IMG/VR virus record: IMGVR_UViG_3300045988_175028
Direction: 5' to 3' (one strand)
DNA length: 64,000 nt
Source of the DNA: a virus
Part shown: positions 29,801 through 48,968 of the stretch, one piece after another
How the letters are laid out: every line of letters begins with the position of its first letter
How positions within the stretch are numbered: the stretch's first letter is position 1
Position numbers and translations under genes: made by a program
Notes under the pieces: generated by a model
What the model saw: only the letters and a program-made list of their open reading frames with translations
What the model was told of the DNA's origin: nothing
Database searches by the model: none

Positions 29801-30460
29801 ACCAGTGAAAATGGAGAGAGTAGCGCGCTCAATATTTATAATACTTCCAAAGGAATTATTTTCAAAGAAGAAAAAGATTATAGACCAACTACTGATACCA
29901 AAATAGATACAACTAAAAAATATTATAAAAAGAATTCAAATGAAACTTACTCTATAGTTGAAATTCCAGAAGAGACTAAAATTTCAAGCTATTATGAATT
30001 TATAGAAAAGACCCTTTACCAGATAAGCAAAACTGGATTTGTCACCCCTCAAAAAGAGTTTATTACAATATTTGATAACGCTATTGACTTTTCAGGAGAC
30101 ACTTTTAGAGTAGACACGAAGAAAGGAGAAAAAGAAATAGATAGAATTTTGGTATCTAAAGATGGGATTTCATGTTTTACAGTATTAGATAGTGAGTTTT
30201 CTTCTCAAAAGAGTTATGTTTCTTTTTCTAAAGATAAAGTTTCACTCAAGACAATCACCAGTGGTGAGAAACCGGACATTATCACTGGAGAACTTTCAGT
30301 AGAAGATAGCAAAATTACTTCAAATGGAAACTTTTTTGCTCAACGGAATATCCTTTTTGGTAATTCTTTAGAGTATCGAAAGGTAACTGAAGGAAAAACC
30401 GAAGTAGGTTACGATTTATATATAAAAACATCCACAGAGACTTCGGTGCCTGGCCAATGA
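23855..30460 (+). CDS. tail-associated (Tal-like) baseplate hub / minor structural protein, 2201 aa
   Basis: Position after Dit. The N-terminal KYEISLWEDRLVP...NGTNKLTFKLYY pattern is typical of phage minor structural / tail endopeptidase-family N-termini. The C-terminal half has beta-rich G/T/S repeats such as GSFSGGTIGGFTI. Confidence 0.6.
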   Translation: MKKNKYEISLWEDRLVPQTGEGENIIPEHYEEEKVCIIGSDTMTSQARALEPKLVRNVNGTNKLTFKLYYTYTDNETGKRVQNPFTSLLVNERKVKCKWEDQWYDFVIKGIQEDSNGRTITYTCEDLYINELSKTGFNLEFDQKLNNNQGTAQELAKKVLDGTDWIVDTSNSDHILQTIEEPLYKAFLKKSITVKNEKDEDVTITLEKDPQTGTLIYVPIYLFYSVVQEKKSYIQFIYNTSYETESNSQLLKENNCYSVDMKAEGWKGFVGTYLNGDPVFSDDYRGKRLVRKQLQEFNSALNRNCYVYKDPNNNDNKVLGYSTVEYKDPTVVLNLISNSKEFTDTQGWQGALSWELYPLFFGEEKLNYSYTSTTYLRNTAKDPILVFNSGLQDSAGYLEDGLQPGQRYILRIRGYNGEPKADENGNLPIFNKNSEISFHIYDYFTALSSENSIPVHNTEDYCKKIGESQLEDYYFITSDVEKNTKKEYYIRNTETKKYDLKAFPEGAVFPGNEPLYEKGQILQIEFKVIRARPKKEITAGYFGTYTYTDSAGNFQTETSIARPGIFISLPANSWIQEVQFYQRVEGYNGSIIHLGDFDTQSIGITYYKYFLPNDSYKKEEDIAYLYCGTTQKTDLTEVYEDKSGDITHVLYEKIRSITTKNSNRFNILQNIAETFQCWVRFKIEHNEDTGKIIYEKGIPKKTVYFKEEVGEDLGYGFVYGIDLKTISRSIDSNQLTTKVVVAPNTSEHAENGICRIADADLNENGENYILDFGYYISQGLLNSGELNKYLYLPSGDKSGFYVELKNKNKEYNSIVEKLTPKKTELSKQSSLQTIYDQYVSNSVTEITTLQNNLCKLVGFDIFDDEAILEYLKTHSDNEEVKNIYSNLITQQHKRESFQASLKLIESSVNELTKVVNSYEKDLKAKVNEKKVLESAFYQKFSRFIQEGSWTSQDYIDPNLYYLDARSVAYTSSRPKISYNISVIRLNALDEYKGKKFNVGDISFIEDKEFFGYIKGEDAWKTPYHEKVLISESTSWFDSPEKDTFTIQNYKTQFEDLFQRITATTQSLQYSTGEYNRASSIVEGKGVINTETLQNSININNELVFKSQNEEIFQDSTGLTLTDKRDPSKRTKLTSGGLFISTDGGVTWKNAVRGEGVATQYLTSGSINTNNIAIYDGAHASFRWDKYGINAYDATRGIDEVTNQEVLKGIVTNNFVRFDQYGVYGIKGATDGPYNPQKETTVEGKKIVGEDKIWHDALFGMTWKGFFLKNKSADKNQQIEISTEKDICVSKIIDKKVIDKIRIGQITTKDNKVAYGLQLKDDTGTITMETDDSGRLWLRDKLRISNVKYEKTKDLSFVEGKTYYKKESDGTYSIVKPSEISIEDCYELKNSGVSIGVLETGEEKNQIFNSNNNFIVYDDGSVKATKGSFSGGTIGGFTIEDNRLFSNDVVLSSRGIEIKNNGTLSILDGNTEVFSANKIFYKKTTDITPQEEKTYYIYNKDTGVYTLWEKGESTEFPSDIEIYDAVRKTIFSGTLEGANGSFSGELKGATGIFSGELQSATGVFTGDITAQSGTIGGFTINTNNLTSVNESVVLDGTNGKITAEDIELGNGAQVRDKISFKGTDGTVAYLQNPALYEGVVLSAKDIKLRTSGVLEFGDIKIFGDQTNPTIKSSLWTIDKDKAVFNNVTAQGGTIENVVFKNSTIQGAGGIMFFKPSYSGTSVSSIDTKTVFIVEETGLKVGDHVIVNGQEGNVTAVEQETNITISGVKFKGNKTVTIIKLYNNSLVDGTINLTDNLLIGVNSLRAEQSQDGTVGKNEDCHLFRGGITVTLPTIVAKTIDTGETQTVVEYPNKPNLFIGDLYPITGKPGYGLYGDNVYLNGTLTTKVKSDKSPTYAGVNTIDGYNVNENLFKDKDASQKIVFWAGSIGEDKPSVQQAPFQVTDKGNLYAKAGTFTDSVFSNSKIEGSKIYGADIYTANIHGWTGTSENGESSALNIYNTSKGIIFKEEKDYRPTTDTKIDTTKKYYKKNSNETYSIVEIPEETKISSYYEFIEKTLYQISKTGFVTPQKEFITIFDNAIDFSGDTFRVDTKKGEKEIDRILVSKDGISCFTVLDSEFSSQKSYVSFSKDKVSLKTITSGEKPDIITGELSVEDSKITSNGNFFAQRNILFGNSLEYRKVTEGKTEVGYDLYIKTSTETSVPGQ

Positions 30461-30505: not shown

Positions 30506-33500
30506 ATGGCAACAATAAATTATACTTATACTGATGATAGACCTAATATAGTTTATCAAATAACTTGTAATTGTACGAGAAGTTCTAATAGTCAAATTAC
30601 ATATAGTGGAACCGTAACTTGGAATCTGCGATATTCAGATTCTCATATTGGAACTGGATATGTGCTAGAATGCAGAGCAACTTCAAGCACTGGTGGAGAT
30701 AGTGGATGGATAGCTTTTACTGAATGGGGAAGTTCTTATAGTGGAACTACAAAAAGGTCATTTAGTTATTCTTTTACTGCTACAAGTAGTTCTGCTGGTG
30801 CCTTTGACCGTGTTACTTTTTCTTTTCGTAATAATTCTAATTATGATAGTGGGTATAATTCTTTCTCAACCTATACCGATTTCTCAACACCAGCTTTATT
30901 ATGGACTAATTGTACTGCTCCTTCAAGAGTTTGGTCTCCCGATGCCCTTATTATAAAACCCGGAACTTTATTAGTAAACTGGTCGGGTGCGACTAATGGA
31001 ACTGATAATGCTATTAAAAATTATACTGTATATTGGCTAGTATCTCCTACAAATGGGGAACTTCCAACCATAAGTCGGTATAGTGGGAAAGAAACTACGC
31101 CAGACTCTTTTTACAATATTACTATTCCAGAAAGCTATCGAGGTCAATACATTTCTGTAAGAATCCAATCCAATGCAACTTATAATAACCCTATAAGTAG
31201 TGACTATATTCGTCGTTCTGTGAATAGCTTACCCAATAGTCCCTTAATTCCTACCACTTCAAAAACAATATCTTCAACTCAGACTTCGGTTGCTATAACA
31301 GACATTTCACCTGGTAATCTAAACTTTGGAAGTAAATCTGGCTCAGTTTACTGGGCCAGAACTTCCGACGGACCAGAAAACCCAGTCAATGGAGGAGAAA
31401 TTACAGATAACACATTAGGAGACTTACATCAAGGAGATAGCAAAAATTATTACTTTTGGACTTATGATGGATTGGAATACAGCTCTTCTCCAACAAAGGT
31501 TACAATAACCAAAAATATAAAGCCCGCTATTGATGTGGCTATAACTAGTTCCACTAATTCTATTGTTAGACTTGAGAGTTCTGAAATTTCTAATGTACTT
31601 GAAACAATAAGTTTTACTGTAACCGCACAGAATAAGGCGTGTTATTACACACTAAAAATTTTGAGAGGAACGGATGCGAATGAAGAGACTTTGTATACTT
31701 TGAAATCAGATATTTATTTATCTGGTTCCGAGGTTTCTGACTCTATAAGTTTTGACATTCGGTCATTAGGATTATCAACAGGGGATTTTTATTTTCATTT
31801 TGCTTGTAATGATTATATAGAAAGCGGAGATAGTATAATAAAGGATAATGATAAAGAAAATTATTATTCTCCTGCTCTCCCGACCTTTTCTGATAATACT
31901 ACTTATAATCAATTTTCAGAAGAAAATGTCTTTAAAGCTAACCCGATTGATTTTTATCAAAATCTTCGTTTTATATCATCCTATTACGACAGTTATCTAT
32001 ATCAAAATGGAATCTTTAAACTTAATACTGGTAGTAATGAAACTATTTCTTATACAGTTAGTAAAAGTTTAAACCAAAAAGAAACAAAAATCTTCTATGA
32101 TGTAACTATAATTTCAGATTTAGTACCTGGTCAGAGTTATGACTTTTTCCCCACTTTACAGTTAGCTGGTCTGACAAGTTCCGCCTTGGTGTCTCGACGC
32201 CGGACTCCTGTATTAGACCCAACCCCTTCCTCTGGAAGCACTTTGTATATCAAACCTTTTACAGATGGATGGGATAAAATAAATAATAAGCCATCTCTTT
32301 CTTCTAAAAAAATTAGTATATCCAAGGGAACTTTCACCAATAATGAACTTACTAAGTTTTATAGCTATTATAATATTGATGAAAATAATAAAGAATGGTG
32401 GAAATCAGTAATTATAACTCCTGATGGCAAAGAGGTTGACGTTACGGATTTAGTAAAAGGAGGCGCGTTAAGTGGGGATTATTATGAAAGAAATTTTGAA
32501 ATAACTGGAAGCGAAGACCCAGATACCTCTGAGCCTAAATCAGGTTTTTTTGATATACTTCCTAATGGTTTTTCTAAAACGGGGGTTCTAACTTGTGTTT
32601 TGAAAAACACTATCACAAATAGATTTGGACAAACTATTTCTAAGCAATCTTCAATCGTAACCTTAGATTTCAATGAAAATCCCGAAGTTATAAGTTTAAT
32701 TCGAGAGGGAAATAATGATATTTATTTATACGAAGAATATAGATTACGATTGACTTATACTATAAAGACTTTTTCTTATAATAAGCTTATTAGATATTCT
32801 TGTTTAATAAATCGTAAAGATGGGAAAGGATTCGTTTCTTATGGTAATGAAGGAGATATAGAAGACAATAGCCCTTCTCCAAAATTTGGTATAGGTAGAA
32901 TTTTTACTAACACTATTGAAGTTACGATTAGTGAGATTCAACAATCTGGGGAATGCTACTTCAATATGATTTTTTATGATGGAGATTCAACGATATATAG
33001 CACTAAAAAGGCTATATCATGTCAAAGAATAAAATTTGCTCCTCCCACCATTTCATTTGATAAAGCTACTTATATAAGTGAGGGAAATACTCTTCCAGGG
33101 AAAGTAAATTGTCAATATAGTATTATTGATTGGGGATATGATAGTAGTCAAGAAAAACTTTTTAGTTCCAAAAGCTTTATATTAAAACTAAATCTTTCTA
33201 AGTATGAGGAAACTGAAAATACTGCCAACACAATTTTTCCACTTACCAAAAGAATTATTGATTTCGAAATTGGTAGATTGACCTTAACTACAACAATAAC
33301 CTATAATGGTCAATCTATTGAAAAACATTCTACCTCAAATGACCTCATAATCTACGGCATCAATCCGACTATTGCTTATCGCCAAAATTACTTAGGAATA
33401 AACACTTCTACTCTTCAAGATGATTCGATAATAACAATAGCTCCAACCTCAGGAAGGAATATTATCTATCTTCAAAAAGTAGGTTCTGCCGATACTTTTA

Positions 33501-33571
33501 AAATAAACTTAGCAACCGGTGCTTTAGAAGGTTTTAATATTGATTGTGGTGAAATCACGAATAAAACTTGA
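30506..33571 (+). CDS. tail fibre / receptor-binding protein candidate (1021 aa)
   Basis: Large S/T/N-rich beta-type protein after Tal, with an FN3-like segment (NYTVYWLVSPTNGELP...). Assignment is by position. Confidence 0.4.
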   Translation: MATINYTYTDDRPNIVYQITCNCTRSSNSQITYSGTVTWNLRYSDSHIGTGYVLECRATSSTGGDSGWIAFTEWGSSYSGTTKRSFSYSFTATSSSAGAFDRVTFSFRNNSNYDSGYNSFSTYTDFSTPALLWTNCTAPSRVWSPDALIIKPGTLLVNWSGATNGTDNAIKNYTVYWLVSPTNGELPTISRYSGKETTPDSFYNITIPESYRGQYISVRIQSNATYNNPISSDYIRRSVNSLPNSPLIPTTSKTISSTQTSVAITDISPGNLNFGSKSGSVYWARTSDGPENPVNGGEITDNTLGDLHQGDSKNYYFWTYDGLEYSSSPTKVTITKNIKPAIDVAITSSTNSIVRLESSEISNVLETISFTVTAQNKACYYTLKILRGTDANEETLYTLKSDIYLSGSEVSDSISFDIRSLGLSTGDFYFHFACNDYIESGDSIIKDNDKENYYSPALPTFSDNTTYNQFSEENVFKANPIDFYQNLRFISSYYDSYLYQNGIFKLNTGSNETISYTVSKSLNQKETKIFYDVTIISDLVPGQSYDFFPTLQLAGLTSSALVSRRRTPVLDPTPSSGSTLYIKPFTDGWDKINNKPSLSSKKISISKGTFTNNELTKFYSYYNIDENNKEWWKSVIITPDGKEVDVTDLVKGGALSGDYYERNFEITGSEDPDTSEPKSGFFDILPNGFSKTGVLTCVLKNTITNRFGQTISKQSSIVTLDFNENPEVISLIREGNNDIYLYEEYRLRLTYTIKTFSYNKLIRYSCLINRKDGKGFVSYGNEGDIEDNSPSPKFGIGRIFTNTIEVTISEIQQSGECYFNMIFYDGDSTIYSTKKAISCQRIKFAPPTISFDKATYISEGNTLPGKVNCQYSIIDWGYDSSQEKLFSSKSFILKLNLSKYEETENTANTIFPLTKRIIDFEIGRLTLTTTITYNGQSIEKHSTSNDLIIYGINPTIAYRQNYLGINTSTLQDDSIITIAPTSGRNIIYLQKVGSADTFKINLATGALEGFNIDCGEITNKT

Positions 33572-36973: not shown

Positions 36974-37876
36974 TTACTTTAGTCCGGTAGAACCGAAACC
37001 TCCATCAGCCCTTTCTGTATCTTCCATAACTTTATTTACCAAATAAAAATTAGCTTTAGGAACTTCGGCGAGGACTAACTGGGCAAATTTCTCACCCTTA
37101 TGAATATAATGGTCTGCGCCATGTAGGATGGAAGTAATAATAGGATGGCCATTATCATCAAATTCATAAGTAATATCTTGAATGGGGGCCTCCACATTTT
37201 CAATAATAACACAGACTTCTCCGCGGAACCCTGCGTCAATAGTTGCAGGAGTATTTGCGACTCTTAGCTTTGTTTTTAGACAACGACCACTTTTAGGACG
37301 GATTTGTAATTCATAACCATTAGGAATAGCAAATTTTAGACCAGTAGGAATTAGCTTTGTTTCTCCGGGATGGATAGTATAGTCTTCTAGTGCATATAAG
37401 TCCATTCCACTGTCATCTATATGTGCATATTCAGGCATCCGGACCCCTTTTCGGCACTTCTCATAAGGAATTTGGATATACTTTTTAGCAATTCCTTGAG
37501 TTTCACTGATGCAATTAGCTAATCCATTAGCCAGTTGCTTCAGAAAATCCTTCTTTTGGGCAGAGAAACCTTCTAATGTATCAATCTTTTGGCCTAATTG
37601 GGCAAAATTCTGAATCATATCCTCAACAGTAGCTCCATTAGCATTTATTGCTTGGGCAAAAAGCAAACGAGTATTTGCATTATTCAAACTTCGTAGGTAG
37701 CTATCTAAAACACCAGGAGCTAATAAAGCAAATTTATCTTCGGGAAGATTTAATAGCCCGCCAATTGCTTCAAGGGTATCTTCTTTACCAGAAAGTTCTC
37801 CTATTATAGAAGATAGTTGATGAACGTCTTCTTTGGTAATTTTTTTTTGGGTAGAAAAATCAAATATCTCAGCCAT
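36974..37876 (-). CDS. dut: dUTPase (trimeric type) fused to an uncharacterised N-terminal domain of about 140 aa
   Basis: dUTPase motifs DSGMDLYA, RPKSG, ATIDAGFRGEV, GEKFAQLVL and RADGGFGSTG all lie in the C-terminal 160 aa. Residues 1 to about 140 have no recognisable motif. Confidence 0.8.
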   Translation of the reverse strand: MAEIFDFSTQKKITKEDVHQLSSIIGELSGKEDTLEAIGGLLNLPEDKFALLAPGVLDSYLRSLNNANTRLLFAQAINANGATVEDMIQNFAQLGQKIDTLEGFSAQKKDFLKQLANGLANCISETQGIAKKYIQIPYEKCRKGVRMPEYAHIDDSGMDLYALEDYTIHPGETKLIPTGLKFAIPNGYELQIRPKSGRCLKTKLRVANTPATIDAGFRGEVCVIIENVEAPIQDITYEFDDNGHPIITSILHGADHYIHKGEKFAQLVLAEVPKANFYLVNKVMEDTERADGGFGSTGLK

Positions 37877-38102: not shown

Positions 38103-38342
38103 TTAGTCTTTTACATCAATATTTAAAGAAGTAAGATTATTTTTATCAATTGATGTTGATGAATTGCTTGTAGTAATTGTAGAATAATAGTAAGGTGTGG
38201 TTGTAATATTAGAACCATAAGAAATAGTATAGCTATCTATTTTACCTTCATTATAAACTTCATTCAGTAGTTTTTGAAGCTCTTCTTTCGTAAATTCTAT
38301 CTTACCCTTTTCATTATGAGGGAATACTCTAATTTTAGTCAT
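38103..38342 (-). CDS. hypothetical protein (79 aa)
   Basis: ORF packed between neighbours, with an S/T/N-rich C-terminus. Confidence 0.4.
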   Translation of the reverse strand: MTKIRVFPHNEKGKIEFTKEELQKLLNEVYNEGKIDSYTISYGSNITTTPYYYSTITTSNSSTSIDKNNLTSLNIDVKD

Positions 38343-38943
38343 TATTACTCTCCTTCTGTGTTAATTCCATAAATCTTGGTAGCGTCTCAATCCAATTACA
38401 AATCATTTGCCAATCGGGTAGGCGATGATGACGTCGTTGCTGATAGATTGTTTTTAATTGCTGATAATTTGTTGTCATTCCGGCTGTTAGCTCAAAACCC
38501 ATTGGAATATTATAAAGAATTTCGATGTATTTTTCTTCCATAAGTTTTTGAATTTCTTTTGTTTTTTCTTTTAAAGCAGATAGTCTATTATATTCGTCAA
38601 TCTTTTCTTGGCAAATATCAATAATTCGTTTATCTACATAAGCATTACATTGCTTTCTTAGAGAGAATTTTACAGCCTTATGCATCTTGCTTTGACTTGA
38701 ATTAATCTCGAACCAATGATACCGTTCTGCTTGCATCCAGGCATTTTGGCTAATTGTTAAATCAAACTGGACAATAATTCCTTTTAGAGCGTTATCATGT
38801 CCCTGTCCAGTTGGACAAGTTAAACACGCCCTAATACCAGGAGTAAGCTCACTATTCAATTTTTCAATATCGATAGCCTTTGGATATTTAGCAGTTTTGA
38901 TTGCTCGTTCAAGACCATACACTTGGGTATTTTCAATTTTCAT
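38335..38943 (-). CDS. divergent ThyX-like (flavin-dependent thymidylate synthase fold) protein with a degenerate signature motif
   Basis: GHDNALKGIIVQFDLTISQNAWMQAERYHWFEINSSQSKMH aligns by eye to the ThyX block GHxSxLEHxxFTFxIxGxSRxxxxQLxRHRxxSxNExSxRY. The C-terminal TTNYQQLKTIYQQRRHHRLPDWQMI aligns to NxRxLxHFxxLRxxxxAQxEIR. The RHRxxS signature reads RYHWFE. Confidence 0.5.
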   Translation of the reverse strand: MKIENTQVYGLERAIKTAKYPKAIDIEKLNSELTPGIRACLTCPTGQGHDNALKGIIVQFDLTISQNAWMQAERYHWFEINSSQSKMHKAVKFSLRKQCNAYVDKRIIDICQEKIDEYNRLSALKEKTKEIQKLMEEKYIEILYNIPMGFELTAGMTTNYQQLKTIYQQRRHHRLPDWQMICNWIETLPRFMELTQKESNND

Positions 38944-39463
38944 TTTTTACCTCCCTAAAAATTAGGTCTTTTGGTAAAAAGTTTTTACAAATATAAATAC
39001 TAGCAAAAGCAACTCCTTTTACCATTTTTGTCATTTCTTTATCTTGATAAAAATTTATCCTTTTATCAAAAATAAGGGCTTGACAGTTCTTTAAATAAGG
39101 GAATCTTTTTTGTCCCTGAAGACTGGGTAAGGGCAATAAAATGGCAAAAGGTTTTCCTAACTCATCTAGTCTCTTTAGAATTTCATCTTTACAAGAAAAT
39201 GGAGGGTTAGAAATTATAATATCATACTTTGGAGGTTCAAAGAAAAAGAAATTTTCTCCATTATCAATATGAGAATAAATAACTTGAAAACCTTTTTCTT
39301 CAAAAATTTTGACATATGCACTATCTTTAGTATCAAAAGGGCACCAAATGATTTTTCCTTTTGGGAGAAATTCTAAAAGAGGCCTCACTGCTTCTACTGG
39401 AGTAAAATATTCATCAGATTGTTTATTCGTTTTCGCGGTTAGATATCCTTTATTCTGTCCCAT
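38933..39463 (-). CDS. amino-methyltransferase-like protein (NPPF motif; putative DNA N6-adenine methyltransferase)
   Basis: DEYFTP near the N-terminus and IIISNPPFS (motif IV). I prefer the ATG at 39463 (RBS GGAGG; the ATG overlaps the TAA of the upstream ORF) to the GTG at 39490. Confidence 0.55.
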   Translation of the reverse strand: MGQNKGYLTAKTNKQSDEYFTPVEAVRPLLEFLPKGKIIWCPFDTKDSAYVKIFEEKGFQVIYSHIDNGENFFFFEPPKYDIIISNPPFSCKDEILKRLDELGKPFAILLPLPSLQGQKRFPYLKNCQALIFDKRINFYQDKEMTKMVKGVAFASIYICKNFLPKDLIFREVKNEN

Positions 39464-39880
39464 TATACCTCCACAATTTGATAAGAACACCCATCAACAG
39501 AATTTATATATTGTAAAACATCTTCATATTCCGGTTTTTTAAACCAATCATTTAGGAGATAAATATAACTAACTTTTTCAATTCCTAAACTTTTGGCTAT
39601 TTTTCTATATTGCGAAATTTTGAAGGCACAGGTTTGAAGTTTTTCGTCAACAGAGCCAGCTACTTTTTGAAATTTCTTTTCATAAATTTTTAGCTCATCG
39701 TTTACTAGGTAAGCTTCATCAGGTAGAAGTTTCTTTGAAATAAGGCTCTTCCAATCAATTTTTAGTTCCTTTAGGTACTGATAAAGCTTATGCTTTGAAA
39801 GATCAATGCCTTCTTTCTTGGCACAACAAATCTTTTCCCCATTTCAGACCATTAGAAGTATCTCTCGGGGCATTAGTCAT
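39463..39880 (-). pseudogene. frame-broken ORF: 25-codon leader (ATG 39880, stop 39803-39805) plus a 126-codon +1-frame body (39843 down to TAA 39465-39463) with no start codon
   Basis: Good RBS (GAAGGA) and ATG at 39880. The long open frame is shifted +1 and has no ATG/GTG/TTG until its last codons. The overlap window contains G4 and A4 runs (plus strand CCCC 39837-39840, TTTT 39833-39836). The body's TAA overlaps the next gene's ATG, suggesting translational coupling. Confidence 0.5.
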
Positions 39881-39883
39881 TTT

Positions 39884-40300
39884 TTAAATCCTTCTTTCTT
39901 TTACAAAATCTCCATCTTCATCAATAAAATAAATATTTCTAATTCCCAAATCTTTTATCAATTTACTACACGCAGGACAAGGGCGAGAGCACGCTCTCTC
40001 ACCCGTTTTCAATTTTCTATAAGTGTAAATAGAAACATCTTTCCATTCTATCTCCTTCCCAATCAATGGAGACAAAGCTGAAATTTCTGCGTGTTCACAA
40101 GAATTGGAGTTTTTATAATCTTCAAAATTACGATACTTATTATAGTAAAATTGAAGAGGACGAGTTTTTGTAGAATTACAAGAAGCAGATAAAATTCTCT
40201 TCCCACTAACAACTACCGCGCCGACTCTTGCCCTATCAAAATTAGAAAGTCTACACATTTGTTTAGCGATATTGAAGAAACTTTTTTCTCTATGAGTCAT
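39884..40300 (-). CDS. dCMP (deoxycytidylate) deaminase
   Basis: Zinc-binding motifs CEHAEISAL (HAE) and PCPACSKLI (PCxxC). 138 aa. Confidence 0.8.
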   Translation of the reverse strand: MTHREKSFFNIAKQMCRLSNFDRARVGAVVVSGKRILSASCNSTKTRPLQFYYNKYRNFEDYKNSNSCEHAEISALSPLIGKEIEWKDVSIYTYRKLKTGERACSRPCPACSKLIKDLGIRNIYFIDEDGDFVKERRI

Positions 40301-40358: not shown

Positions 40359-41627
40359 TCAAATTTTTCTTTGGTCGAGCTCTCGTATAATCTTATCTAT
40401 ACTATGAGCGACTGCGATGAATTGAATTGCATTCCAACCTTTTGTAGTCATTGCCGCGCACCCAATTCGTAGGCCAGAAGCTTCCATAGGAGAGCGTTTT
40501 TCATTTGGAACACAATTTTTATTTAGGGTAATTTTGTGTTTATCAAGTTCTTCTTGGACCTCGCGACCTGTGAGATTAGGGAAGTTTTTTGTAAGGTCAA
40601 TTAGAAAAAGATGATTATCTGTTCCGTCTGTAATTACTTTATAGCCCATTGCTTTAAACTCATTACACATTATCCAGGTATTATAAAGAACTTGGAAGAT
40701 ATATTGCTTAAATTCCTGGGTTAAAGCTTCTTCTGCACAGACCGCTTTTCCTGCAATGATATGCATTAAAGGCCCTCCTTGGTTGGTCGGAAAGACAGCT
40801 CCGTCTACTTTCTTTGCCAGTCCTGGCTTACAAAAGATTAATCCTCCTCTCGGTCCACGCAAAGTTTTATGAGTGGTTGTAGTAATAATATCAGCTAGGC
40901 CAAAGGGAGAGGGGTGATGTCCAGCAGCAATAAGTCCCGCGATATGTGCTATATCAACCATAAAGTATGGGCGGTAATTATTCTTTCGTTCAACTAATTC
41001 TTCTAACTGAACTGCATCAATAATATTTTTTATTCTTTTAAAATCAATAATACGACTATATGCACTTGCCCCAGCGAGAACCATCTTCGGATGATAGTAT
41101 CGAAGTTTTTTTTCTAAATCTTCGTAGTCGATAAAACCATTTTCATCGACGCCGTACTCAACTCGATTATAAATTTTTCCACTAATACTAGCTGGGCCAC
41201 AATGCGAGAGATGGCTTCCATTTTCCAAGCTCATGGCTAATACTGTATCGCCGGGTTCCAATACTGCACAATATGCACTAAGATTTGCTTGCGTCCCACT
41301 ATGAGGTTGTACATTTACATGATAGTCAGTTTCAAAAACTTCTCTCCACTTGTCACAACAATACTCTTCAAGTTTATCTACTGTCTGACAGCCGCCATAA
41401 TATCGACCTTGACGGCCAGAATGGCGGTCAAGTTCCGGATACCCCTCGGCATATTTATTTGTTAAACAAGAGGCCATTGTTGCTCGAACAGCGTCACTAG
41501 GATAGTTTTCACTAGCGATGAGTTCGATATTTTCAGACTGACGCTGACTTTCTTCCAAAATTAATTCTGCTATAGTAGGAGAACTTTTTACTACATAATC
41601 ACAAACCGTTGTATCTAAAGAACTCAA
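40359..41627 (-). CDS. glyA: serine hydroxymethyltransferase
   Basis: ELIASENY near the N-terminus, PLP-lysine motif TTTTHKTLRGPRGG, and a typical length of 422 aa. Confidence 0.85.
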   Translation of the reverse strand: MSSLDTTVCDYVVKSSPTIAELILEESQRQSENIELIASENYPSDAVRATMASCLTNKYAEGYPELDRHSGRQGRYYGGCQTVDKLEEYCCDKWREVFETDYHVNVQPHSGTQANLSAYCAVLEPGDTVLAMSLENGSHLSHCGPASISGKIYNRVEYGVDENGFIDYEDLEKKLRYYHPKMVLAGASAYSRIIDFKRIKNIIDAVQLEELVERKNNYRPYFMVDIAHIAGLIAAGHHPSPFGLADIITTTTHKTLRGPRGGLIFCKPGLAKKVDGAVFPTNQGGPLMHIIAGKAVCAEEALTQEFKQYIFQVLYNTWIMCNEFKAMGYKVITDGTDNHLFLIDLTKNFPNLTGREVQEELDKHKITLNKNCVPNEKRSPMEASGLRIGCAAMTTKGWNAIQFIAVAHSIDKIIRELDQRKI

Positions 41628-41824: not shown

Positions 41825-43639
41825 TTATCCACATCTGCTCCAACCACAAGATTTACATATGACGCATCCGCCCTCTTGTATAAGTTCAGAACCGCACTCT
41901 GGACACTTAGCGCCATTATCAGTCTCTGGATTGAATGGGGGTCTACTCTCAGAGGTTGATATTTGAGAATTGGAATCTGCCAAGGCAATAATTGAATTTC
42001 CTTTCTCAATTCTTTCCTTCATCTCCTTCCACATTTCCATAAGGGCATTACCTACCGCCATAGGACAGCAAGCGCCCTTTGAAGTATCATGCTTTGTAGC
42101 AGTCCGAGAAGCATAACTTGGACAGGCGCCAGTACTTTGAAGCTGGTCGGCAATATCTTCAATTTTTACGCCACCGCGACAAGCTAGGGAAATCATTCGA
42201 GAAAGACCAACCATAAAGTTAGCACATCCACCGGTACTTCCTTTATTTAGATAAATCTCCATCAGGTCTCCCGTCTGGGGATCAAACCAGGCAGTACAAT
42301 GGAGAGAACCACAACCAGTAGTTAGGCGTCGCTTCATTCCAATTAGATTATCAGAGCAGCTAATGATTTCTCCACGAGGTAAACCTTTTTCTTCTTCTTT
42401 TTCTTGAGAGCTGTCGGTCGTTAGAATTCCAAGTCGCTTACAGCCATTTCTAAAAACAGTAATACCCTTTAATCCTTCTTTCCAAGCATTTAGGTAAATC
42501 TCTTCAACATCCTCAATAGTTGCCTCTTCTGGAAGATTCACCGTACTACTAATAGAAGCATCAATATGTCTCTGCCAAGCTCCTTGCATTAGGACTCTAT
42601 TTAGAGGAGAAATTGTTGATGAAGTACAAAACCAATTAGGAAGTTCAGCTTCATCTTTTATTCCATGTTCATCCATATATTCTTTTACAATTGGAGTATA
42701 TACCTTATAATATTCGTCATGACCATGAAGAGATTCAGTTTTTCGAGTGTAGGAGTTAGCAAAAATTGGTTCGATTCCTCCACTAATCCCCAACATCGTA
42801 GAAATAGTACCAGTTGGCGCGATTGTCAGTAATTGACTATTACGAAGACCATAAGCTTCTATTGCTTCTCGTGTACTCTCACAAGTGTTATTTTTTAGAA
42901 AACCACTTTTTTGAACGCAAGATTTATAATTATCATAAGACCCATTATGCCCAGCAAGAAAAGCCGAAGTATATAAAGCTTGGTCAGCCATTACTAGGCC
43001 GATTCTTTCACATAAATGTCGAGCTTGTTCTGAGTCATAGGGAAGTTCCATTTTTATAAGCATATCTGCCAAACCCATAATTCCGAGACCTATCTGACGC
43101 CAATCTGCGACGGATTGCCTCTGTTCTCTTAATGGATGCAGAGGAAGCCCTTCTTCTAATACTTCATTTAAATAAATAATACCATGAGCTACCGTTTCAC
43201 CAAAATCGTCAAAATCAAACTCTTTATCTTTTACAAAAGCAGAGAGATTTATACTTGACAAGAGACAAGAACCTCCCGCAGGAAGGGGCTCCTCCGCACA
43301 AGGGTTGACTCCTGCATATTCAAAAGTATCATCAAACTCAAGTAGATTATAATTGGAAATAGTATCCCAAAAAAGAATTCCAGGTTCTCCCCAATCCCAA
43401 TTATTTTTACATAACTTTTCAAAAATCTCTCTAGCTTTAGCTGTTTTTGTGATAGTTTCGTTAGTTTCTGGACGAGTAAAAGACATTACCCAATCCTTAT
43501 CATTGATTACCGCTTCCATAAAATCATCAGTCACACGAACAGAAATATTCGCTTTAGTAACAGCATCCGGAGAAGTCTTTATATCAATAAAGTCTAAAAG
43601 GTCAGGATGATGGCAGTCTAAGCTAATCATTAATGCCCC
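41825..43639 (-). CDS. nrdJ: class II (B12-dependent) ribonucleotide reductase, exon 2
   Basis: Begins GALMISLDCHHPD, the continuation of the GRRGA motif. Active-site block NPCAEEPLPAGGSCLLSSINLS and a C-terminal zinc ribbon CPECGS...CVICKSC. Confidence 0.8.
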   Translation of the reverse strand, partial: GALMISLDCHHPDLLDFIDIKTSPDAVTKANISVRVTDDFMEAVINDKDWVMSFTRPETNETITKTAKAREIFEKLCKNNWDWGEPGILFWDTISNYNLLEFDDTFEYAGVNPCAEEPLPAGGSCLLSSINLSAFVKDKEFDFDDFGETVAHGIIYLNEVLEEGLPLHPLREQRQSVADWRQIGLGIMGLADMLIKMELPYDSEQARHLCERIGLVMADQALYTSAFLAGHNGSYDNYKSCVQKSGFLKNNTCESTREAIEAYGLRNSQLLTIAPTGTISTMLGISGGIEPIFANSYTRKTESLHGHDEYYKVYTPIVKEYMDEHGIKDEAELPNWFCTSSTISPLNRVLMQGAWQRHIDASISSTVNLPEEATIEDVEEIYLNAWKEGLKGITVFRNGCKRLGILTTDSSQEKEEEKGLPRGEIISCSDNLIGMKRRLTTGCGSLHCTAWFDPQTGDLMEIYLNKGSTGGCANFMVGLSRMISLACRGGVKIEDIADQLQSTGACPSYASRTATKHDTSKGACCPMAVGNALMEMWKEMKERIEKGNSIIALADSNSQISTSESRPPFNPETDNGAKCPECGSELIQEGGCVICKSCGWSRCG

Positions 43640-44626
43640 CAATATGGACTATATCTTATTTTATTTTGAAAATAAAACTCGGGCGCTACTGTGGTCTTAT
43701 TGTTTCCTCAACCACTAGTCTCTACACGTTCCATCAACTTCTTAGTTGAAATTGATAGCTTCGCTCGGGGTTGTTGGGCGTTCCCCGAATTCACCCAATT
43801 CAAGACGCAGGGCATTCGCTTTATTATATTTTCTTTTTAGAATAATAAAATTATCATCAGGATAAATAAAATTTAGAAATTTTAGTACATCTTTTTTATT
43901 GGCAAATTCTAAGACAAAACAATTTTCGTTTGCTTTTGGCCGAATAATTGTTGAAATGGCGCATTGTTTTAGTAAAATTTGTTGAATACCTGTTAAAACT
44001 TTTAATGATGAAGTAAAAGAAATTTTCTGCCAAATTCTGTTTCTATCTTTTCGTAGTCCCCAGGTCAAACACCCATCTCCATCAAAGAACCCTTGCACCA
44101 AATATCTTTCTAAATTTTTAGAGATAATTGGACAATGTTTATTTTCTTTTGAGGAACAATGTTTATTAAAATCAATAACCAAATCTGAATTGCCAATAGT
44201 GATTCTTGCTCGTGGAAATCGTCTTGCTTCTGGTTTATATGTTAAGTCTTCTCTATAATTAGCTCCAATATAATTAGCAATAAATTGTAATATTTCTTTA
44301 TCATCTAAGCAACATCCAAATTCGATAGAATTATTATTGATGTATCCATCTGCTAACGCATATCCAATAATGTAAGCTTTTTTTGGAGTATCAATTTTAT
44401 TGAACATCTTTGGGTCTTTGTATTTGGGCTTAGCATATTTAGACTTATCATTTAATTTATATTTACTAATCCAATAGCCAACTGTTGACTTACTTTTTCC
44501 AGTAAGTTGAGCAATTTCACGATGAGTTAATCCATCTTCTAAATATTTTTCTAATAATTCTTTATTCATTTAAGAAGCCTCCTACTCTATATATTTTCGA
44601 AAACTTATAATTTATTAAGCGATTTT
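43640..44626 (-). mobile_element. group I intron (about 987 nt) in nrdJ carrying a LAGLIDADG homing endonuclease ORF
   Basis: Exon 1 ends ...GQAGRR (cgt, last nucleotide U at 44627). The intron ends in G (43640). The join restores GRR|GALM in frame. The minus strand carries TAAGATATAGTCC (43655-43643), matching the group I J8/7-P7 consensus. I could not identify a convincing P1/IGS pairing by eye. Confidence 0.7.
43742..44569 (-). CDS. LAGLIDADG homing endonuclease (double-motif) with an N-terminal HTH
   Basis: YIIGYALADGYI and LVQGFFDGDGCL motifs. N-terminal HTH REIAQLTGKSKSTVGYWISK. Own RBS AGGAGG. Confidence 0.8.
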   Translation of the reverse strand: MNKELLEKYLEDGLTHREIAQLTGKSKSTVGYWISKYKLNDKSKYAKPKYKDPKMFNKIDTPKKAYIIGYALADGYINNNSIEFGCCLDDKEILQFIANYIGANYREDLTYKPEARRFPRARITIGNSDLVIDFNKHCSSKENKHCPIISKNLERYLVQGFFDGDGCLTWGLRKDRNRIWQKISFTSSLKVLTGIQQILLKQCAISTIIRPKANENCFVLEFANKKDVLKFLNFIYPDDNFIILKRKYNKANALRLELGEFGERPTTPSEAINFN

Positions 44627-45070
44627 ACGTCTTCCGGCTTGACCAATCTCTTCAGTCGTTTGGCTATATCCCTGCATAAAACTTACCGCGCCGGTGGTTT
44701 GTTCTGCTTGATTATGAACCTTTGCTCCTGCGGGGGCTAATTTAGAAAGGTCAATTCCACAGCCACCACCATAAGAATAAGTTCGAGCTAATTTTTTGCG
44801 ACTTTCAAAAATAGATTCGATATTATCTTCTGGAGGAGTAATAACATAACAATTACTATAAGTTACTCGTGTATCAGTGATTCCCCGATTGCTAAGAATT
44901 CGTCCGCCAGGAATGAACTTTTTTTCAATAATTAGTGCTTTTATTGCTTCATTATTTCCACTAACTCTATCTAACCATTTATCAAATGATTCTTCGTTTT
45001 TACGGTATTTTCTCATCCAAATATCAATACCAAGCAAGTTATCTTTTCCTAGCCATTGCTCTACTGTCAT
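44627..45070 (-). CDS. nrdJ: class II ribonucleotide reductase, exon 1
   Basis: FIPGGRILSNRG, SNCYV, YSYGGGCGIDLSKLAPAGAKV, GAVSFMQGY and GQAGRR match the N-terminal conserved blocks of NrdJ. Confidence 0.8.
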
Positions 45071-45261: not shown

Positions 45262-46399
45262 TTATAATTTTCCTCCCATCAAAAATTACTTTTCTCCATT
45301 CATAAAACATTCTAAAGGCTTCATAGTTATTGAATCTAACATATTGAAAAGCATCCCTGGCTTCTTGGGTAGAAGGCCATCTTCGCTGATATTTTGCTCG
45401 CCAGCATTTCCAAGGATCTTGATGTTTAGCTATCCATTTACAATAATCAACGATTCTATCTGCTTTATAATTATAGTATTTTGACCTTATAAACCAATTC
45501 AAGACTTCAAAAAGATTTTGTAATTCAGGAGTTGTGATTAGTGTGTCATTATATATAAGTGAAATTTTTATCCAATGTCTATGGAAAAATAGAACTTGAG
45601 GAAGAATTAAAGGCAAGCGATTCATCAAAAAGTCATTCTCATCCTTACAACCTTCATCAACTTTATAAGACATTTGACTTGTTCCTAAATCCCATAAGTA
45701 TCTCATTTTATCACATAAGACGTCATCCATAAAATTATTATATTGTATTCCAAAAACATCTTCCATAATAGGTAGTCGTAACCATTTTAGTAGTTCTTCC
45801 TCCGAAGATACCTGTATAGGAAATTTAGTTCCAAGTGAATATGGTTTTACAGTATTGCTATTTAGATTATTCCGAGAATACAACCAGTCTTTTATAAAAT
45901 CATAAGCGCCATCAACAGCACCAGCATCGTAATCGTGAAGAATAAGACATCTTGTGTTTTGAAACATATAGTCTTCTTTTTTTAGCCAAGGGTCTATATT
46001 TTTCCCATCAATTGAAAGACGAATATGCGCGCTCCATAAAATTCTCTTGAAAAGGCGCGCATCATCCTTTATACGGCAAAAATTAGGAGAATGACGCTCA
46101 TAGATTGAAAAATCAGGAATAGTTTGTTCGATTTCAAGAGGAAGAGGTTTATATGGACCTGGCTGTATCGCACGCCCTCCAAGAATTATCTTATCATCAA
46201 ATAACTCTCGTGGATAAATTCCATCATCATAATCTTTTCTTACATAAAGAGTAGAGAAGCGTTCTGGCGCCAACTCTGGTGCCAGAACGGAAATTTCTCT
46301 TTTTTTCTTATGATAAGCACAAAGTTTCGCACATTCAAGATTAGGGAGGACATTTTGGTAAGTAAAAAAATCGTAATCATGTACTCCAATTATTCCCAT
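45248..46399 (-). CDS. hypothetical protein (383 aa)
   Basis: Long ORF translationally coupled (TAATG) to dnaE exon 2. W/Y/F-rich with no motif recognised. Confidence 0.55.
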   Translation of the reverse strand: MGIIGVHDYDFFTYQNVLPNLECAKLCAYHKKKREISVLAPELAPERFSTLYVRKDYDDGIYPRELFDDKIILGGRAIQPGPYKPLPLEIEQTIPDFSIYERHSPNFCRIKDDARLFKRILWSAHIRLSIDGKNIDPWLKKEDYMFQNTRCLILHDYDAGAVDGAYDFIKDWLYSRNNLNSNTVKPYSLGTKFPIQVSSEEELLKWLRLPIMEDVFGIQYNNFMDDVLCDKMRYLWDLGTSQMSYKVDEGCKDENDFLMNRLPLILPQVLFFHRHWIKISLIYNDTLITTPELQNLFEVLNWFIRSKYYNYKADRIVDYCKWIAKHQDPWKCWRAKYQRRWPSTQEARDAFQYVRFNNYEAFRMFYEWRKVIFDGRKIINDSN

Positions 46400-47862
46400 T
46401 ACTGTTCAATCCTCCCTTGACTTTCTACTGTGCCGTCTTTGTTTATTTTTGTGATTAGCTCAATGCCATGATAAGGAGTATTCTTATATTTTTTCATAAC
46501 GAATTCGTTATCTCTCCTGATGCCTGTAATAATAATTTTGTTTCCTCTACTGAAGATACTTTTTTCAATGACGTGTTTTTTGCCATCGGCACCCCGTTCG
46601 CTAATTTGTTTGTCATAATAAGAAAAGACTTCACCAAAAACTCTTACATTTACGACTCCCTCTCTAGTCAAAACCGTTACCATTTTTTTGCTCTTATCTC
46701 TATCAAGAACAGTACCACAAATGCGATGAATCTTAAAAAGTGGGATTTTCTTTCCTTTTATTTCAATTATTCTATCAATTTCAGGCTGTTCGTTTAGTTC
46801 AAAGAAGTTTGAAAAACCACATAGTCGATAATTGACATCTTGAAGTTCGTGCTGATGAAAATAACAAGAAACGCTGTCCATCTCCCATTTACTAATAGAC
46901 CCAAGACAATATTTATTCCAAACATCAGACATTAGCCTATTATTTACATCATTTAGTAATAATTGGTTATTATCTTTTATGAAAGGACGAATAATATCCA
47001 TCTGAGCTTTATAAATTTTATCCCACTTGGTTTGAGGAATCGCAAATCCACTTTCAGTGTCATAAGGTTCTAGAAAATCAACATCAAAATTCTTTTCATA
47101 AAAGTTCATTGTGATGTTATCTAATCCATAATACTGAGTTCCTACTTTCATCTTTTTTAGATATTTATTGAAATTGAAGACCCGTCTTTGAAGGTCATAC
47201 TCATCAGGAATCAAACCAAAATCAATCAACATCTTCATATTTTGGAGAGTTATCCGTTTTTTCGTATCACTGATTTCTGAGACATAATATTGCATTAAAC
47301 TCTCTCTATTACTAAATTCATCAAAAGCACCAGCTTTTATAAGATTTATCATTTGAGGCTTGTTGATTTTTACTTTTGAGAGAAAATCATCAATTGAGGA
47401 GTAGGGGCGATTTTCAATTATTGATTTTACAATATCTTCGCCTACTTTTACAATTCCGCTCATACCAAAACGAATTATTGACTTTTCTACATCGGGAGAG
47501 AAAGTATAGGTAGATTTGTTTATATCTGGCGGCGCGACATCAATTCCCGACATCTTCATTTTTCCAATGGCAGAGCTAATTTTTCCATAATTTGTGGTTT
47601 TAGTTTTTTTCTTTTTCTTTTTCTCTTTTACGACTTCTTCATCATCTTCATCATCGTCGTTATCATCCTCAAATTCTTCTATACAATCAACATAAGTTTC
47701 TTCAATAGTATCATCTTCCTCGTCTTCTTCTACTCCTTCATTTCCTCCACTATCGCTAATAAGACAAGCGCAATTCCAAAAAATAATCGGAAATTGATAG
47801 GCTAAATTCATTTCTTGAAGAGCGATTAGCGAATAAGCCAAGGTATGTGATGCATTCTTTAC
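46399..47862 (-). CDS. dnaE: DNA polymerase III alpha (DnaE-type), exon 2
   Basis: Starts (V)KNASHTLAYSLIALQ, which continues the conserved GYGFNKSHxxAY motif. Downstream regions are HhH-like and OB-like. There is no independent RBS. Confidence 0.75.
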   Translation of the reverse strand, partial: VKNASHTLAYSLIALQEMNLAYQFPIIFWNCACLISDSGGNEGVEEDEEDDTIEETYVDCIEEFEDDNDDDEDDEEVVKEKKKKKKTKTTNYGKISSAIGKMKMSGIDVAPPDINKSTYTFSPDVEKSIIRFGMSGIVKVGEDIVKSIIENRPYSSIDDFLSKVKINKPQMINLIKAGAFDEFSNRESLMQYYVSEISDTKKRITLQNMKMLIDFGLIPDEYDLQRRVFNFNKYLKKMKVGTQYYGLDNITMNFYEKNFDVDFLEPYDTESGFAIPQTKWDKIYKAQMDIIRPFIKDNNQLLLNDVNNRLMSDVWNKYCLGSISKWEMDSVSCYFHQHELQDVNYRLCGFSNFFELNEQPEIDRIIEIKGKKIPLFKIHRICGTVLDRDKSKKMVTVLTREGVVNVRVFGEVFSYYDKQISERGADGKKHVIEKSIFSRGNKIIITGIRRDNEFVMKKYKNTPYHGIELITKINKDGTVESQGRIEQ

Positions 47863-48968
47863 CACTCATGGTTTCCCATGCCGATTAAATCGTTGTGGTC
47901 TGGACTATACCATCATCCTTATCTAATAAGGCGTCACTATTATAGTCTCTGAACGTCTTTCTTAAATAATTATACTTTCTATTCATTCCAAAAGGTCTAT
48001 TATAAACAATTGCGATTAACTTTAATATATTATACTGATTTGCAGTTTCAATTCTATACAAACCGCTTTCAGACATTCTAATTGCGATATCATCCATGAA
48101 GAAATTATTTTTTAACACTTCTGTAATCCACATGGCAAAATCTTTAGACATCGTGCATATATAAAATTGCGCGCCGCCATAGGAAGTTTTAGAAACACAA
48201 CCATCACCGTCAATTATTCCTCGAATAATATAAGGTAAAAATTGTTTTTCTTCATCAAGAAGTTTTGGCGTTGGCAGAATAATTGATTTATTTGGAACAA
48301 TACCAAAACGTTCAACTTGTTTTGATATGCCAGGTATTGTAATTAAAACTCTATACCTGGTTTTGTGGATTCCATCATTATAACTTTTATAGTCAGTGCC
48401 AATCGTTTTTGCCACAAAGCTTATCGCGTCTTCGTCTGTCATATCTAATCCTAATCCATCTCTATCACTTAACACATATCCATCTGTTAGTAATAAACCA
48501 ACAAAATAAGCATCAAATGGAGAAGTTAATTTTTCTAAGGAGTAAACATAACCCCTGCGACTGTTTTGTGCCTCTTTTATTATTTCTTCATAATTCTCTG
48601 GATAATATTTTTTTACTTTGTCCGTTATTGATTTTTTGGTTTTATAACCATACTTATTCATTAGTTCTATAACGGAGGTCCCTTGTTTATATTCTTCAAC
48701 CAATTGTAGTTCTTGTTCTTTGGATAATTTTTTATATCCCATTGTATCTCACCTCTAATTATAAGTAACCTTTGAGATGAGAAAGCATATCATTTTAAGA
48801 AATTTCGCTGCGGATTATCCAATCTTTAATAATTTTACCATACCCGCACTTTTTCTGCGCGGCCGCTATATACGTTACCGTTACAGTTTGGTTATTAAAG
48901 CTCTAAGGAACTTCCCGCAATTTAAGTGATTTTTAACTATATGTTACCATATAGGGCTTCAATATTCT
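47863..48968 (-). mobile_element. group I intron (about 1.1 kb) in dnaE carrying a LAGLIDADG homing endonuclease ORF
   Basis: The 5' exon ends GGCUUU (...GYGF). Eight nt into the intron, GAAGCC can pair with it and gives the canonical terminal U-G wobble (P1). AAATTGCGGGAAG (48923-48911) resembles Tetrahymena P4. GATGGTATAGTCC (47914-47902) matches the J8/7-P7 consensus. The intron ends in G (47863). Boundaries are good to about +/-3 nt. Confidence 0.75.
47885..48742 (-). CDS. LAGLIDADG homing endonuclease (intron-encoded)
   Basis: YFVGLLLTDGYV and IIRGIIDGDGCV motifs. Own RBS GAGGTGA. The 3' end of the ORF overlaps the intron P7-like core sequence. Confidence 0.8.
   Translation of the reverse strand: MGYKKLSKEQELQLVEEYKQGTSVIELMNKYGYKTKKSITDKVKKYYPENYEEIIKEAQNSRRGYVYSLEKLTSPFDAYFVGLLLTDGYVLSDRDGLGLDMTDEDAISFVAKTIGTDYKSYNDGIHKTRYRVLITIPGISKQVERFGIVPNKSIILPTPKLLDEEKQFLPYIIRGIIDGDGCVSKTSYGGAQFYICTMSKDFAMWITEVLKNNFFMDDIAIRMSESGLYRIETANQYNILKLIAIVYNRPFGMNRKYNYLRKTFRDYNSDALLDKDDGIVQTTTI

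Follow-up and report, generated by a model that had tools for sequence, protein, structure and literature searches.

The gene and its operon

The window analysed here is a stretch of 64,000 nucleotides of viral DNA (IMG/VR record IMGVR_UViG_3300045988_175028), and the subject of this report is a gene on its minus strand (38335-38943) that encodes, from an ATG start, a protein of 202 amino acids belonging to PHROG 6721. This protein comes from a large and unannotated family that shares its fold with ThyX, the flavin-dependent thymidylate synthase, and it is predicted, with somewhat better than even chances, to be the thymidylate synthase of its phage, despite the rewriting of the motif by which ThyX enzymes are recognised. 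As read from the sequence, a Shine-Dalgarno element, GGGAGG (38950-38955, minus strand), lies 6 nt 5′ of the ATG. The open reading frame (ORF) shares 11 nt with the gene upstream and 8 nt with the gene downstream, showing that it belongs to a tightly packed operon. An earlier note on this DNA, made from the letters alone, had called this ORF and had reported a departure from the ThyX motif, which falls at residues 74-88; both readings proved correct.

The phage is SPbeta-like, with members of the YorF, YorH, YonG, YonD and YonB families on contigs of 111-143 kb. On the minus strand, the module begins with a class II-type ribonucleotide reductase (RNR; 41825-45070, with Pfam Ribonuc_red_lgC on both pieces and TSCPD on the larger), which is split by a LAGLIDADG endonuclease gene (43742-44569; Pfam LAGLIDADG_3). 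It continues with an ORF of 62 amino acids (aa), serine hydroxymethyltransferase (SHMT; 40359-41627; Pfam SHMT, E 3.7e-130), which makes 5,10-methylene-tetrahydrofolate (methylene-THF), and a dCMP deaminase (39884-40300; Pfam dCMP_cyt_deam_1, E 3.1e-12), which makes dUMP. There follow a frameshifted ORF, a methyltransferase-like gene, the ThyX-fold gene itself, two small ORFs, a dUTPase of 300 aa that likewise makes dUMP (36974-37876; Pfam dUTPase, E 7.7e-18, best stretch aa 146-229), and a RuvC-like resolvase. The setting in a one-carbon and pyrimidine operon that had been claimed from the letters is thereby borne out, with class II RNR, SHMT, dCMP deaminase and dUTPase all accompanying the ThyX-fold gene. 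Neither ThyA nor ThyX was detected in the window by tblastn, nor among the Pfam labels of the 10 kb past each window end.

The methyltransferase-like gene (38933-39490, minus strand) is a small, NPPF-motif gene that matches phrog_799 (E 6.5e-36) and, weakly, EcoRI_methylase; translation probably begins at the ATG at 39463, which would give a product of 176 aa. It is a variable insert outside the core module, being absent from contig L007, in which the dCMP deaminase directly abuts the ThyX-fold gene. A functional coupling of the ThyX-fold protein to a DNA methyltransferase, considered on account of this neighbour and of Dcm in phage Fnu1, was rejected, since the cassette is absent in L007 and the corresponding neighbour in the C. 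difficile phage phiCD211 is unrelated.

Two further observations concern the same module. The frameshifted ORF (39491-39880, minus strand), which separates the dCMP deaminase from the methyltransferase-like gene, has an intact counterpart of 138 aa in contig L003 (9065-9481). The copies in the window and in L004 are disrupted by a single additional G in a G-run (GGGG against GGG), for which a pseudogene, a homopolymer subject to phase variation and an error of assembly are all conceivable explanations. The dUTPase carries an N-terminal extension of about 140 aa that matched no family.

Homology to ThyX

Comparisons of sequence gave weak but consistent signs of kinship with ThyX. Residues 41-179 of the window protein aligned with positions 42-173 of the 191 in the Pfam Thy1 profile (E 7.4e-4), at a score of 19.8 bits, which lies under the gathering cutoff of 24.8 bits. 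Among 66 diverse members of the family, 16 matched Thy1, the best with E 1.7e-6, and every other Pfam family was matched by at most three of the 66, none better than E 5e-4. When broad profiles were aligned with hhalign, using 144 family sequences and 61 ThyX sequences that take in phage ThyX, the match reached E 3.4e-5 over 134 columns. It was marginal against a narrow, Thermotogae-only ThyX profile (E 0.0099, 56 columns) and weak when the chromosomal clade of the family was used alone (E 0.091). Searches of the PDB sequences with phmmer and with profile hmmsearch recovered no ThyX, because the kinship is too remote for sequence-profile search, and a scan of NCBIfam, which has no model for the family, returned no match.

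The question is settled by structure. An AlphaFold2 model of the monomer, built from 66 sequences, had a mean pLDDT of 96.6 and a pTM of 0.88, and the best 50 of its 147 Foldseek matches in the PDB (E <= 0.001) consisted entirely of ThyX chains (H. pylori and T. maritima). These matches had E values of 4e-7 to 3.5e-5, TM-scores of 0.53-0.67, about 205-224 aligned columns and 13-17% identity. In the viral library BFVD, two uncharacterised relatives ranked first and phage ThyX came next. On the strength of the predicted structure, the homology of the window protein to ThyX is thus confirmed. The by-eye alignment with ThyX in the earlier note was essentially right: a profile-profile comparison and a structural search, both of which it had named as checks, upheld the relationship. 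The two blocks to which it had pointed are also present: the GH block as GHD at residues 48-50, and the C-terminal block, TTNYQQLKTIYQQRRHH, at residues 157-173.

Conserved and replaced active-site residues

Residues 74-88 (38680-38724, minus strand), read from the sequence, are RYHWFEINSSQSKMH and stand in place of the RHRxxSxxxxSxRY of ThyX; spelled out, they are R-Y-H-W-F-E-I-N-S-S-Q-S-K-M-H. The equivalences with T. maritima ThyX given here come from the broad hhalign profile alignment, not from superposed coordinates. By this alignment, G48-H49-D50-N51 (38791-38802, minus strand) corresponds to G-H53-E-T of ThyX, and the TTNYQQLKTIYQQRRHH block (38425-38475, minus strand) to T-V-N163-A-R165...L-R174...H178. 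Residues H49, Q71, R74, S85, P147, N159, R170 and H173 are the same as H53, Q75, R78, S88, P151, N163, R174 and H178 of the T. maritima enzyme. Conversely, Y75 stands at the position of H79, H76 at R80, S83 at E86, M87 at R90, H88 at Y91 and Q161 at R165, and the T. maritima residues R74 and R147 have no basic equivalent in the family.

These positions are strongly conserved. In 230 distinct family members, Y75, S85, P147 and R170 are present in 100%, Q169 and H173 in 99%, S83 and Y160 in 98%, and H49, R74, M87, H88 and N159 in 97%; D61 also falls within the 96-99% set. The position equivalent to T. maritima R165 is variable, and neither R147 nor R165 is conserved. The invariant residues of the family thus lie on active-site positions of ThyX, and the substitutions are fixed rather than drifting.

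In ThyX, the RHR motif binds the phosphates and the ribityl chain of flavin adenine dinucleotide (FAD), and its first arginine also contacts the isoalloxazine ring and dUMP. R174 and the serine and arginine of SxRY keep dUMP in place, and the tyrosine of SxRY covers uracil C5 and flavin N5 (PMC6514825). The contacts made by PolB give the same picture (PMC5003785). Among the dUMP-contact positions of the T. maritima enzyme, Q75, R78, S88 and R174 are kept in the profile alignment and R74, E86, R90 and R147 are lost. At the five FAD-contact positions named in PMC6514825, R78 is kept, H79 has become Tyr, R80 His and T55, the Ser/Thr position behind GHE, Asn, and R165 is variable. As aligned, the family keeps the first arginine, the serine and the arginine that contacts uracil, whereas some of the residues that cradle the FAD phosphates, an arginine for dUMP and the tyrosine of the lid are predicted to have been replaced. 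The histidine that stacks on the folate is also kept.

The earlier note had regarded the arginine-histidine-arginine, serine and arginine signature as lost. That the motif has been rewritten holds good, and no RHR is hidden elsewhere in the protein. The loss is nonetheless incomplete: R74 (R78 in T. maritima) and the second serine, S85 (S88), are retained, and they are conserved in 97-100% of members.

A large family of hypothetical proteins

The window protein matches PHROG 6721, to which no function is assigned, over its full length (aa 1-196 against positions 8-216 of 218; E 3.6e-48). Its relatives form 2,884 clusters at 90% identity, with 2,613 representatives at 50% identity. All looked-up members that have a source name are labelled "hypothetical protein", and literature searches found no description of the family. 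A Pfam scan of the long members that resemble fusions revealed only HNH or AP2 endonuclease inserts or helix-turn-helix inserts, and no informative enzymatic fusion. In P0140, P0193, P0197, P0199, P0226 and P0234, an in-frame insert of about 230-260 aa carries HNH_3, accompanied in two of them by AP2, and is located between the equivalents of residues ~34 and 45, just ahead of the GHD motif. In P0132, the domain is duplicated in tandem, and the motif of the first copy is degenerate.

Phage neighbourhoods and the ThyX slot

The phage context of the family was surveyed in 91 loci with 10-kb flanks, which fall into 51 groups at 80% identity; genes in the fetched loci were called simply as longest ORFs. 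Enzymes of the nucleotide pool recur around the family gene. A dUTPase is found in 25 of the 51 groups, NrdG in 21, NrdD in 20, a DUF3310 protein in 10, a dNMP kinase in nine, the 5′-deoxynucleotidase NT5C in eight, a guanylate/thymidylate-kinase-like (GK-like) kinase in seven, class II RNR in five and SHMT in three. The gene directly downstream encodes a nucleotide kinase at 16 loci, and at four others a DUF3310 protein. In Enterocloster phage CB473P1 and bajarodcaudo virus 5, all neighbours of the family gene are hypothetical.

Neither ThyA nor canonical ThyX occurs in these 91 loci, and no such partner accompanies the family gene in any of 249 loci. Both enzymes are likewise absent from the complete or near-complete family-bearing genomes XP41-N3 (a C. 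perfringens phage), ProddE, MT835485 and CP067352. Conversely, when 71 loci were anchored on canonical phage ThyX, the family did not appear in them; in this control set the neighbour hidden Markov models (HMMs), having been built from family loci, are less sensitive. No dihydrofolate reductase (DHFR) lies near any family locus, which fits a reaction of the ThyX type because such a reaction yields no dihydrofolate.

The relationship between the family and ThyX is seen most directly in a set of 79 further loci anchored on NrdD, in which NrdD is 65-100% identical to that of family-bearing phages. The family is present in 11 of these loci and a ThyX-type gene in 15; no locus has both, and none has ThyA. 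The two share a common cassette, in which a small protein (c23) is followed by either the family gene or the ThyX-type gene, and then by the GK-like kinase, an optional NT5C, NrdD, NrdG and dUTPase. The cassette contains the family gene in L248, L253 and L258 and the ThyX-type gene in L260, L261, L264, L265, L268 and L270, and in other related phages the slot is empty. Between the two kinds of cassette, NrdD is ~72% identical and the small flanking genes are 26-43% identical. If the 19% of NrdD-anchored loci that carry ThyX is taken as a baseline, the chance of seeing no ThyX is roughly estimated at p ~0.015 for the 20 NrdD-bearing family groups and, less appropriately, at p ~2e-5 for all 51 groups. 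Functionally equivalent ThyA and ThyX show a known anticorrelation in phage genomes (PMC7824862).

In L264 (5178-5702), and also in L265 and L268, the gene in the slot before the GK-like kinase encodes a ThyX-like protein of ~174 aa with the motif VRHIHAQPYVKSQRNDRQ. Short proteins of this type may represent another divergent lineage of the ThyX fold.

Coupling to folD in bacterial chromosomes

The family is not confined to phages. A scan of one genome per species yielded 162 relatives. The best 80 come mostly from metagenome-assembled genomes (MAGs) labelled Bacilli, Bacillales UBA, Erysipelotrichaceae, Mollicutes or Coprobacillus sp. CAG:826, and the genes sit on contigs of up to 1.48 Mb (JAKVOO010000001.1). 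In 66 of 78 bacterial loci, mostly of small-genome Bacilli MAGs, folD, identified by both FolD Pfam domains, lies directly upstream of the family gene. In most of these 66, the longest-ORF call has the family gene begin inside folD, with an overlap of 1-32 nt at the folD stop, and in the remaining folD-linked loci the family ORF abuts within 4 nt or overlaps further. The surroundings are those of a housekeeping region, with secA, prfB, uvrB, secG, a ComF-like phosphoribosyltransferase and peptidase M29.

An almost pure clade of 67 leaves holds 65 of the 66 folD-linked members, and the motif QRYHWFDFISSQSTMH is common to the folD-linked bacterial proteins and the phage proteins. FolD converts 10-formyl-, methenyl- and methylene-THF into one another. 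Two suppliers of methylene-THF are therefore physically coupled to the family, namely SHMT in the phage studied here and FolD in the bacteria.

Other features of the window

Several further features lie outside the nucleotide module. A gene for the alpha subunit of DNA polymerase III (46399-51350, minus strand) is interrupted by a LAGLIDADG gene (47885-48742), an insertion that is polymorphic, given that L004 and L006 have an uninterrupted polymerase of 1258 aa. A GIY-YIG endonuclease gene lies at 51495-52199. The segment 59896-63995 (minus strand) and its flanks, as seen in L091, encode gyrase B- and gyrase A-like subunits, a DNA ligase, RNase H and a UvrD-like helicase. The structural module includes very large plus-strand ORFs of 2595 aa (15032-22819) and 2201 aa (23855-30460), followed by a Ser/Thr-rich ORF of 1021 aa (30506-33571).

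Probable function of the ThyX-fold protein

Taken together, the observations favour thymidylate synthesis as the most likely function of the window protein, and we consider this prediction somewhat more probable than not. It is suggested by the retained active-site residues, by the nucleotide-pool neighbours and the coupling to methylene-THF supply, by the kinases directly downstream, by the mutual exclusivity with ThyX-type genes that occupy the same position, and by the housekeeping operon in bacteria. In the proposed scheme, the dCMP deaminase and the dUTPase of the phage would supply dUMP, and its SHMT would supply 5,10-methylene-THF. The ThyX-fold protein would then transfer the one-carbon unit to C5 of dUMP to form dTMP, probably by way of a bound flavin as in ThyX. 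Here dUMP as substrate, dTMP as product, the use of flavin and the oligomeric state of the protein are what we infer.

With H79 and R80, R90 and Y91 replaced by conserved Tyr and His, Met, and His, respectively, cofactor binding and substrate activation would have to differ in detail from those of ThyX. This raises the possibility of a third, mechanistically distinct class of thymidylate synthase, with the ThyX fold but without the ThyX motif, and with altered flavin binding and dUMP activation. Such a class might be the sole synthase of a lineage of small-genome gut Bacilli (RF39-like MAGs, with folD coupling) and of thousands of phages of Firmicutes and Fusobacteria, overlooked by all annotation pipelines. 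We advance this broader proposal tentatively, at somewhat less than even chances.

Several points weigh against thymidylate synthesis. The motif that defines ThyX, RHRxxSxxxxSxR(Y), is not found in the family, which retains only its first arginine and second serine. Furthermore, R90, a conserved dUMP contact in ThyX (PMC5003785, PMC6514825), is a conserved Met. The lid tyrosine, Y91, has become His, the dUMP-phosphate binders R147 and R74 are without equivalents, and three of the five FAD-phosphate contacts have changed. Work on an R90A mutant of ThyX reportedly found this arginine to be important for catalysis. On the side of context, the zero overlap with ThyX-type genes is by itself only weakly significant, an estimated ~2 co-occurrences being expected where none was seen (p ~0.09), and identities of only 26-43% between the flanking genes imply that the two gene types were exchanged long ago and not recently. 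A thymidylate synthase is not needed by most phages, which makes the absence of other synthases from four genomes weak evidence, and in the bacterial loci the absence of ThyA and ThyX beside the family gene is read at the level of the locus only.

The alternative that survives best, although we consider it unlikely, retains the fold and the one-carbon donor but assumes another substrate or product that feeds a modified-base pathway. The protein might, for example, convert dUMP to 5-hydroxymethyl-dUMP, with water capturing the exocyclic methylene intermediate in place of reduction, or might methylate or hydroxymethylate C5 of dCMP or UMP. The residues that were rewritten are indeed those that touch the nucleotide and cover C5 and N5 (R90 to Met, Y91 to His, and the loss of R147), and PolB demonstrates that homologues of ThyX can switch substrate (PMC5003785). 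Some loci also contain NT5C, the dNMP kinase and a dCMP deaminase. This set of genes resembles the 5-hydroxymethyl-deoxyuridine (hmdU) pathway of SPO1-type phages.

However, the folD-coupled bacterial copy has the same motif, QRYHWFDFISSQSTMH, as the phage proteins, and a bacterium needs plain dTMP. The family also swaps with ThyX-type genes within one cassette, next to the same kinase family. Apart from the variable methyltransferase-like gene, the ORFs scanned in the window include no genes for hypermodification of DNA bases, with glycosyltransferases, 5-hmdU DNA kinase and aGPT-Pplase sought in particular, and the frequency of dUTPase makes DNA containing dU unlikely. An altered substrate or product had been the earlier note's favoured interpretation. 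It is weakened by the alternation with ThyX-type genes in the slot and by the folD operon in a bacterial housekeeping region, and thymidylate synthesis is accordingly preferred.

A second alternative, which we regard as improbable, is that the protein is non-catalytic: a nucleotide or folate binder that modulates the thymidylate metabolism of the host, or an inactive relic. The canonical catalytic motif is missing, the match to Pfam Thy1 is sub-threshold, and an activity is known for no member of the family. Yet ~2,600 clusters at 50% identity keep Y75, S85, R170, Q169, H173, H49 and N159 at active-site positions of ThyX, and these invariant polar residues speak against the non-catalytic paralog that had also been suggested from the letters. 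A canonical ThyX or ThyA that could serve as the active partner is absent from the window, from the examined loci and from the four genomes, and the conserved operon with folD lies in a housekeeping region. In addition, some members carry HNH homing endonucleases within the gene, an insertion typical of conserved phage genes of nucleotide metabolism.

The weakest alternative, a uracil-C5 methylase that depends on folate and has a polymer (tRNA, rRNA or DNA) as its substrate, in the manner of TrmFO or RlmFO but with a ThyX fold, could account for the loss of the arginines that grip the dUMP 5′-phosphate (R74, R90 and R147 in T. maritima) and for the DNA methyltransferase gene that adjoins in the window and in Fusobacterium phage Fnu1, but it is very improbable in view of the variability of that neighbour (absent in L007, unrelated in phiCD211), of the recurrent nucleotide-pool enzymes with nucleotide kinases directly downstream, and of an AlphaFold2 model that has the size and architecture of the ThyX core without an added nucleic-acid-binding domain.

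Thymidylate synthesis is thought to rest on two families, ThyA and ThyX, the second of which is identified through the motif RHRxxS...SxRY and serves as a target for drugs. Here, a sister family without this motif sits where a thymidylate synthase belongs in many phages, and is coupled to folD in the chromosomes of abundant uncultured gut bacteria. Should its members be active as predicted, they would fill apparent gaps in dTMP synthesis in metabolic reconstructions from genomes and would show which ThyX residues are truly indispensable for flavin-mediated methylene transfer. They would also add an enzyme that escapes current searches and inhibitors directed at ThyX and ThyA. Should the product instead be a modified pyrimidine, the family would point to a new way of making modified phage DNA.

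Comparison with known systems

The closest known relative is ThyX itself (FDTS, flavin-dependent thymidylate synthase; Pfam PF02511, Thy1), as represented by T. maritima TM0449 (PDB 1O26) and the H. pylori enzyme (3AH5). ThyX is a homotetramer whose active sites lie where three subunits meet, and with its bound flavin it makes dTMP in a reaction that depends on NADPH and methylene-THF. The fold is shared over its full length, and the family has equivalents of H53, Q75, R78, S88, P151, N163, R174 and H178. Both occupy the same niche and the same slot in the dNTP modules of phages, and both are tied to the supply of methylene-THF. The phyletic complementarity with ThyA and the location in dNTP clusters that characterise ThyX are mirrored in the family, with its dUTPase, Nrd and kinase neighbours. 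The family differs in its 13-17% identity, in its sub-gathering Pfam score and in a signature that reads RYHWFEINSSQSKMH, and the residues that stand in for H79 (Tyr), R80 (His), E86 (Ser), R90 (Met) and Y91 (His) are themselves conserved.

An example of how this fold may be retuned is PolB, the C5-methylase of UMP and dUMP from polyoxin synthesis, a ThyX-fold enzyme whose specificity is unlike that of classic ThyX (PMC5003785). It shares 38% identity with ThyX and retains the dUMP contacts Arg86, Glu94, Ser96, Arg98, Tyr99, Arg166 and Arg193, as numbered in PolB; its FAD pocket is almost as in ThyX, and two loops tune its specificity (PMC5003785). The window family is therefore not PolB-like, because PolB keeps the motif and is tuned by loops, whereas in the family the motif itself has changed.

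Enzymes of the ThyA family, which include thymidylate synthase and the dCMP and dUMP hydroxymethylases of the T4 and SPO1 type, have the role proposed here, namely the C5 transfer of a one-carbon unit from methylene-THF to a pyrimidine dNMP. They resemble the window family in phage context and in their anticorrelation with an alternative enzyme (PMC7824862). Their fold, however, is unrelated, no ThyA-like sequence occurs in any of the loci, and no DHFR lies nearby.

The short ThyX-like phage proteins (~170 aa; L264, 5178-5702) share with the family the slot before the GK-like kinase. They are detected by a ThyX profile but are shorter, carry the motif VRHIHAQPYVKSQRNDRQ, and fall outside PHROG 6721 when searched with the family HMM. 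The window family, which as far as can be inferred works like ThyX while failing both the Pfam threshold and the motif, is most aptly viewed as a large new sister family inside the ThyX fold.

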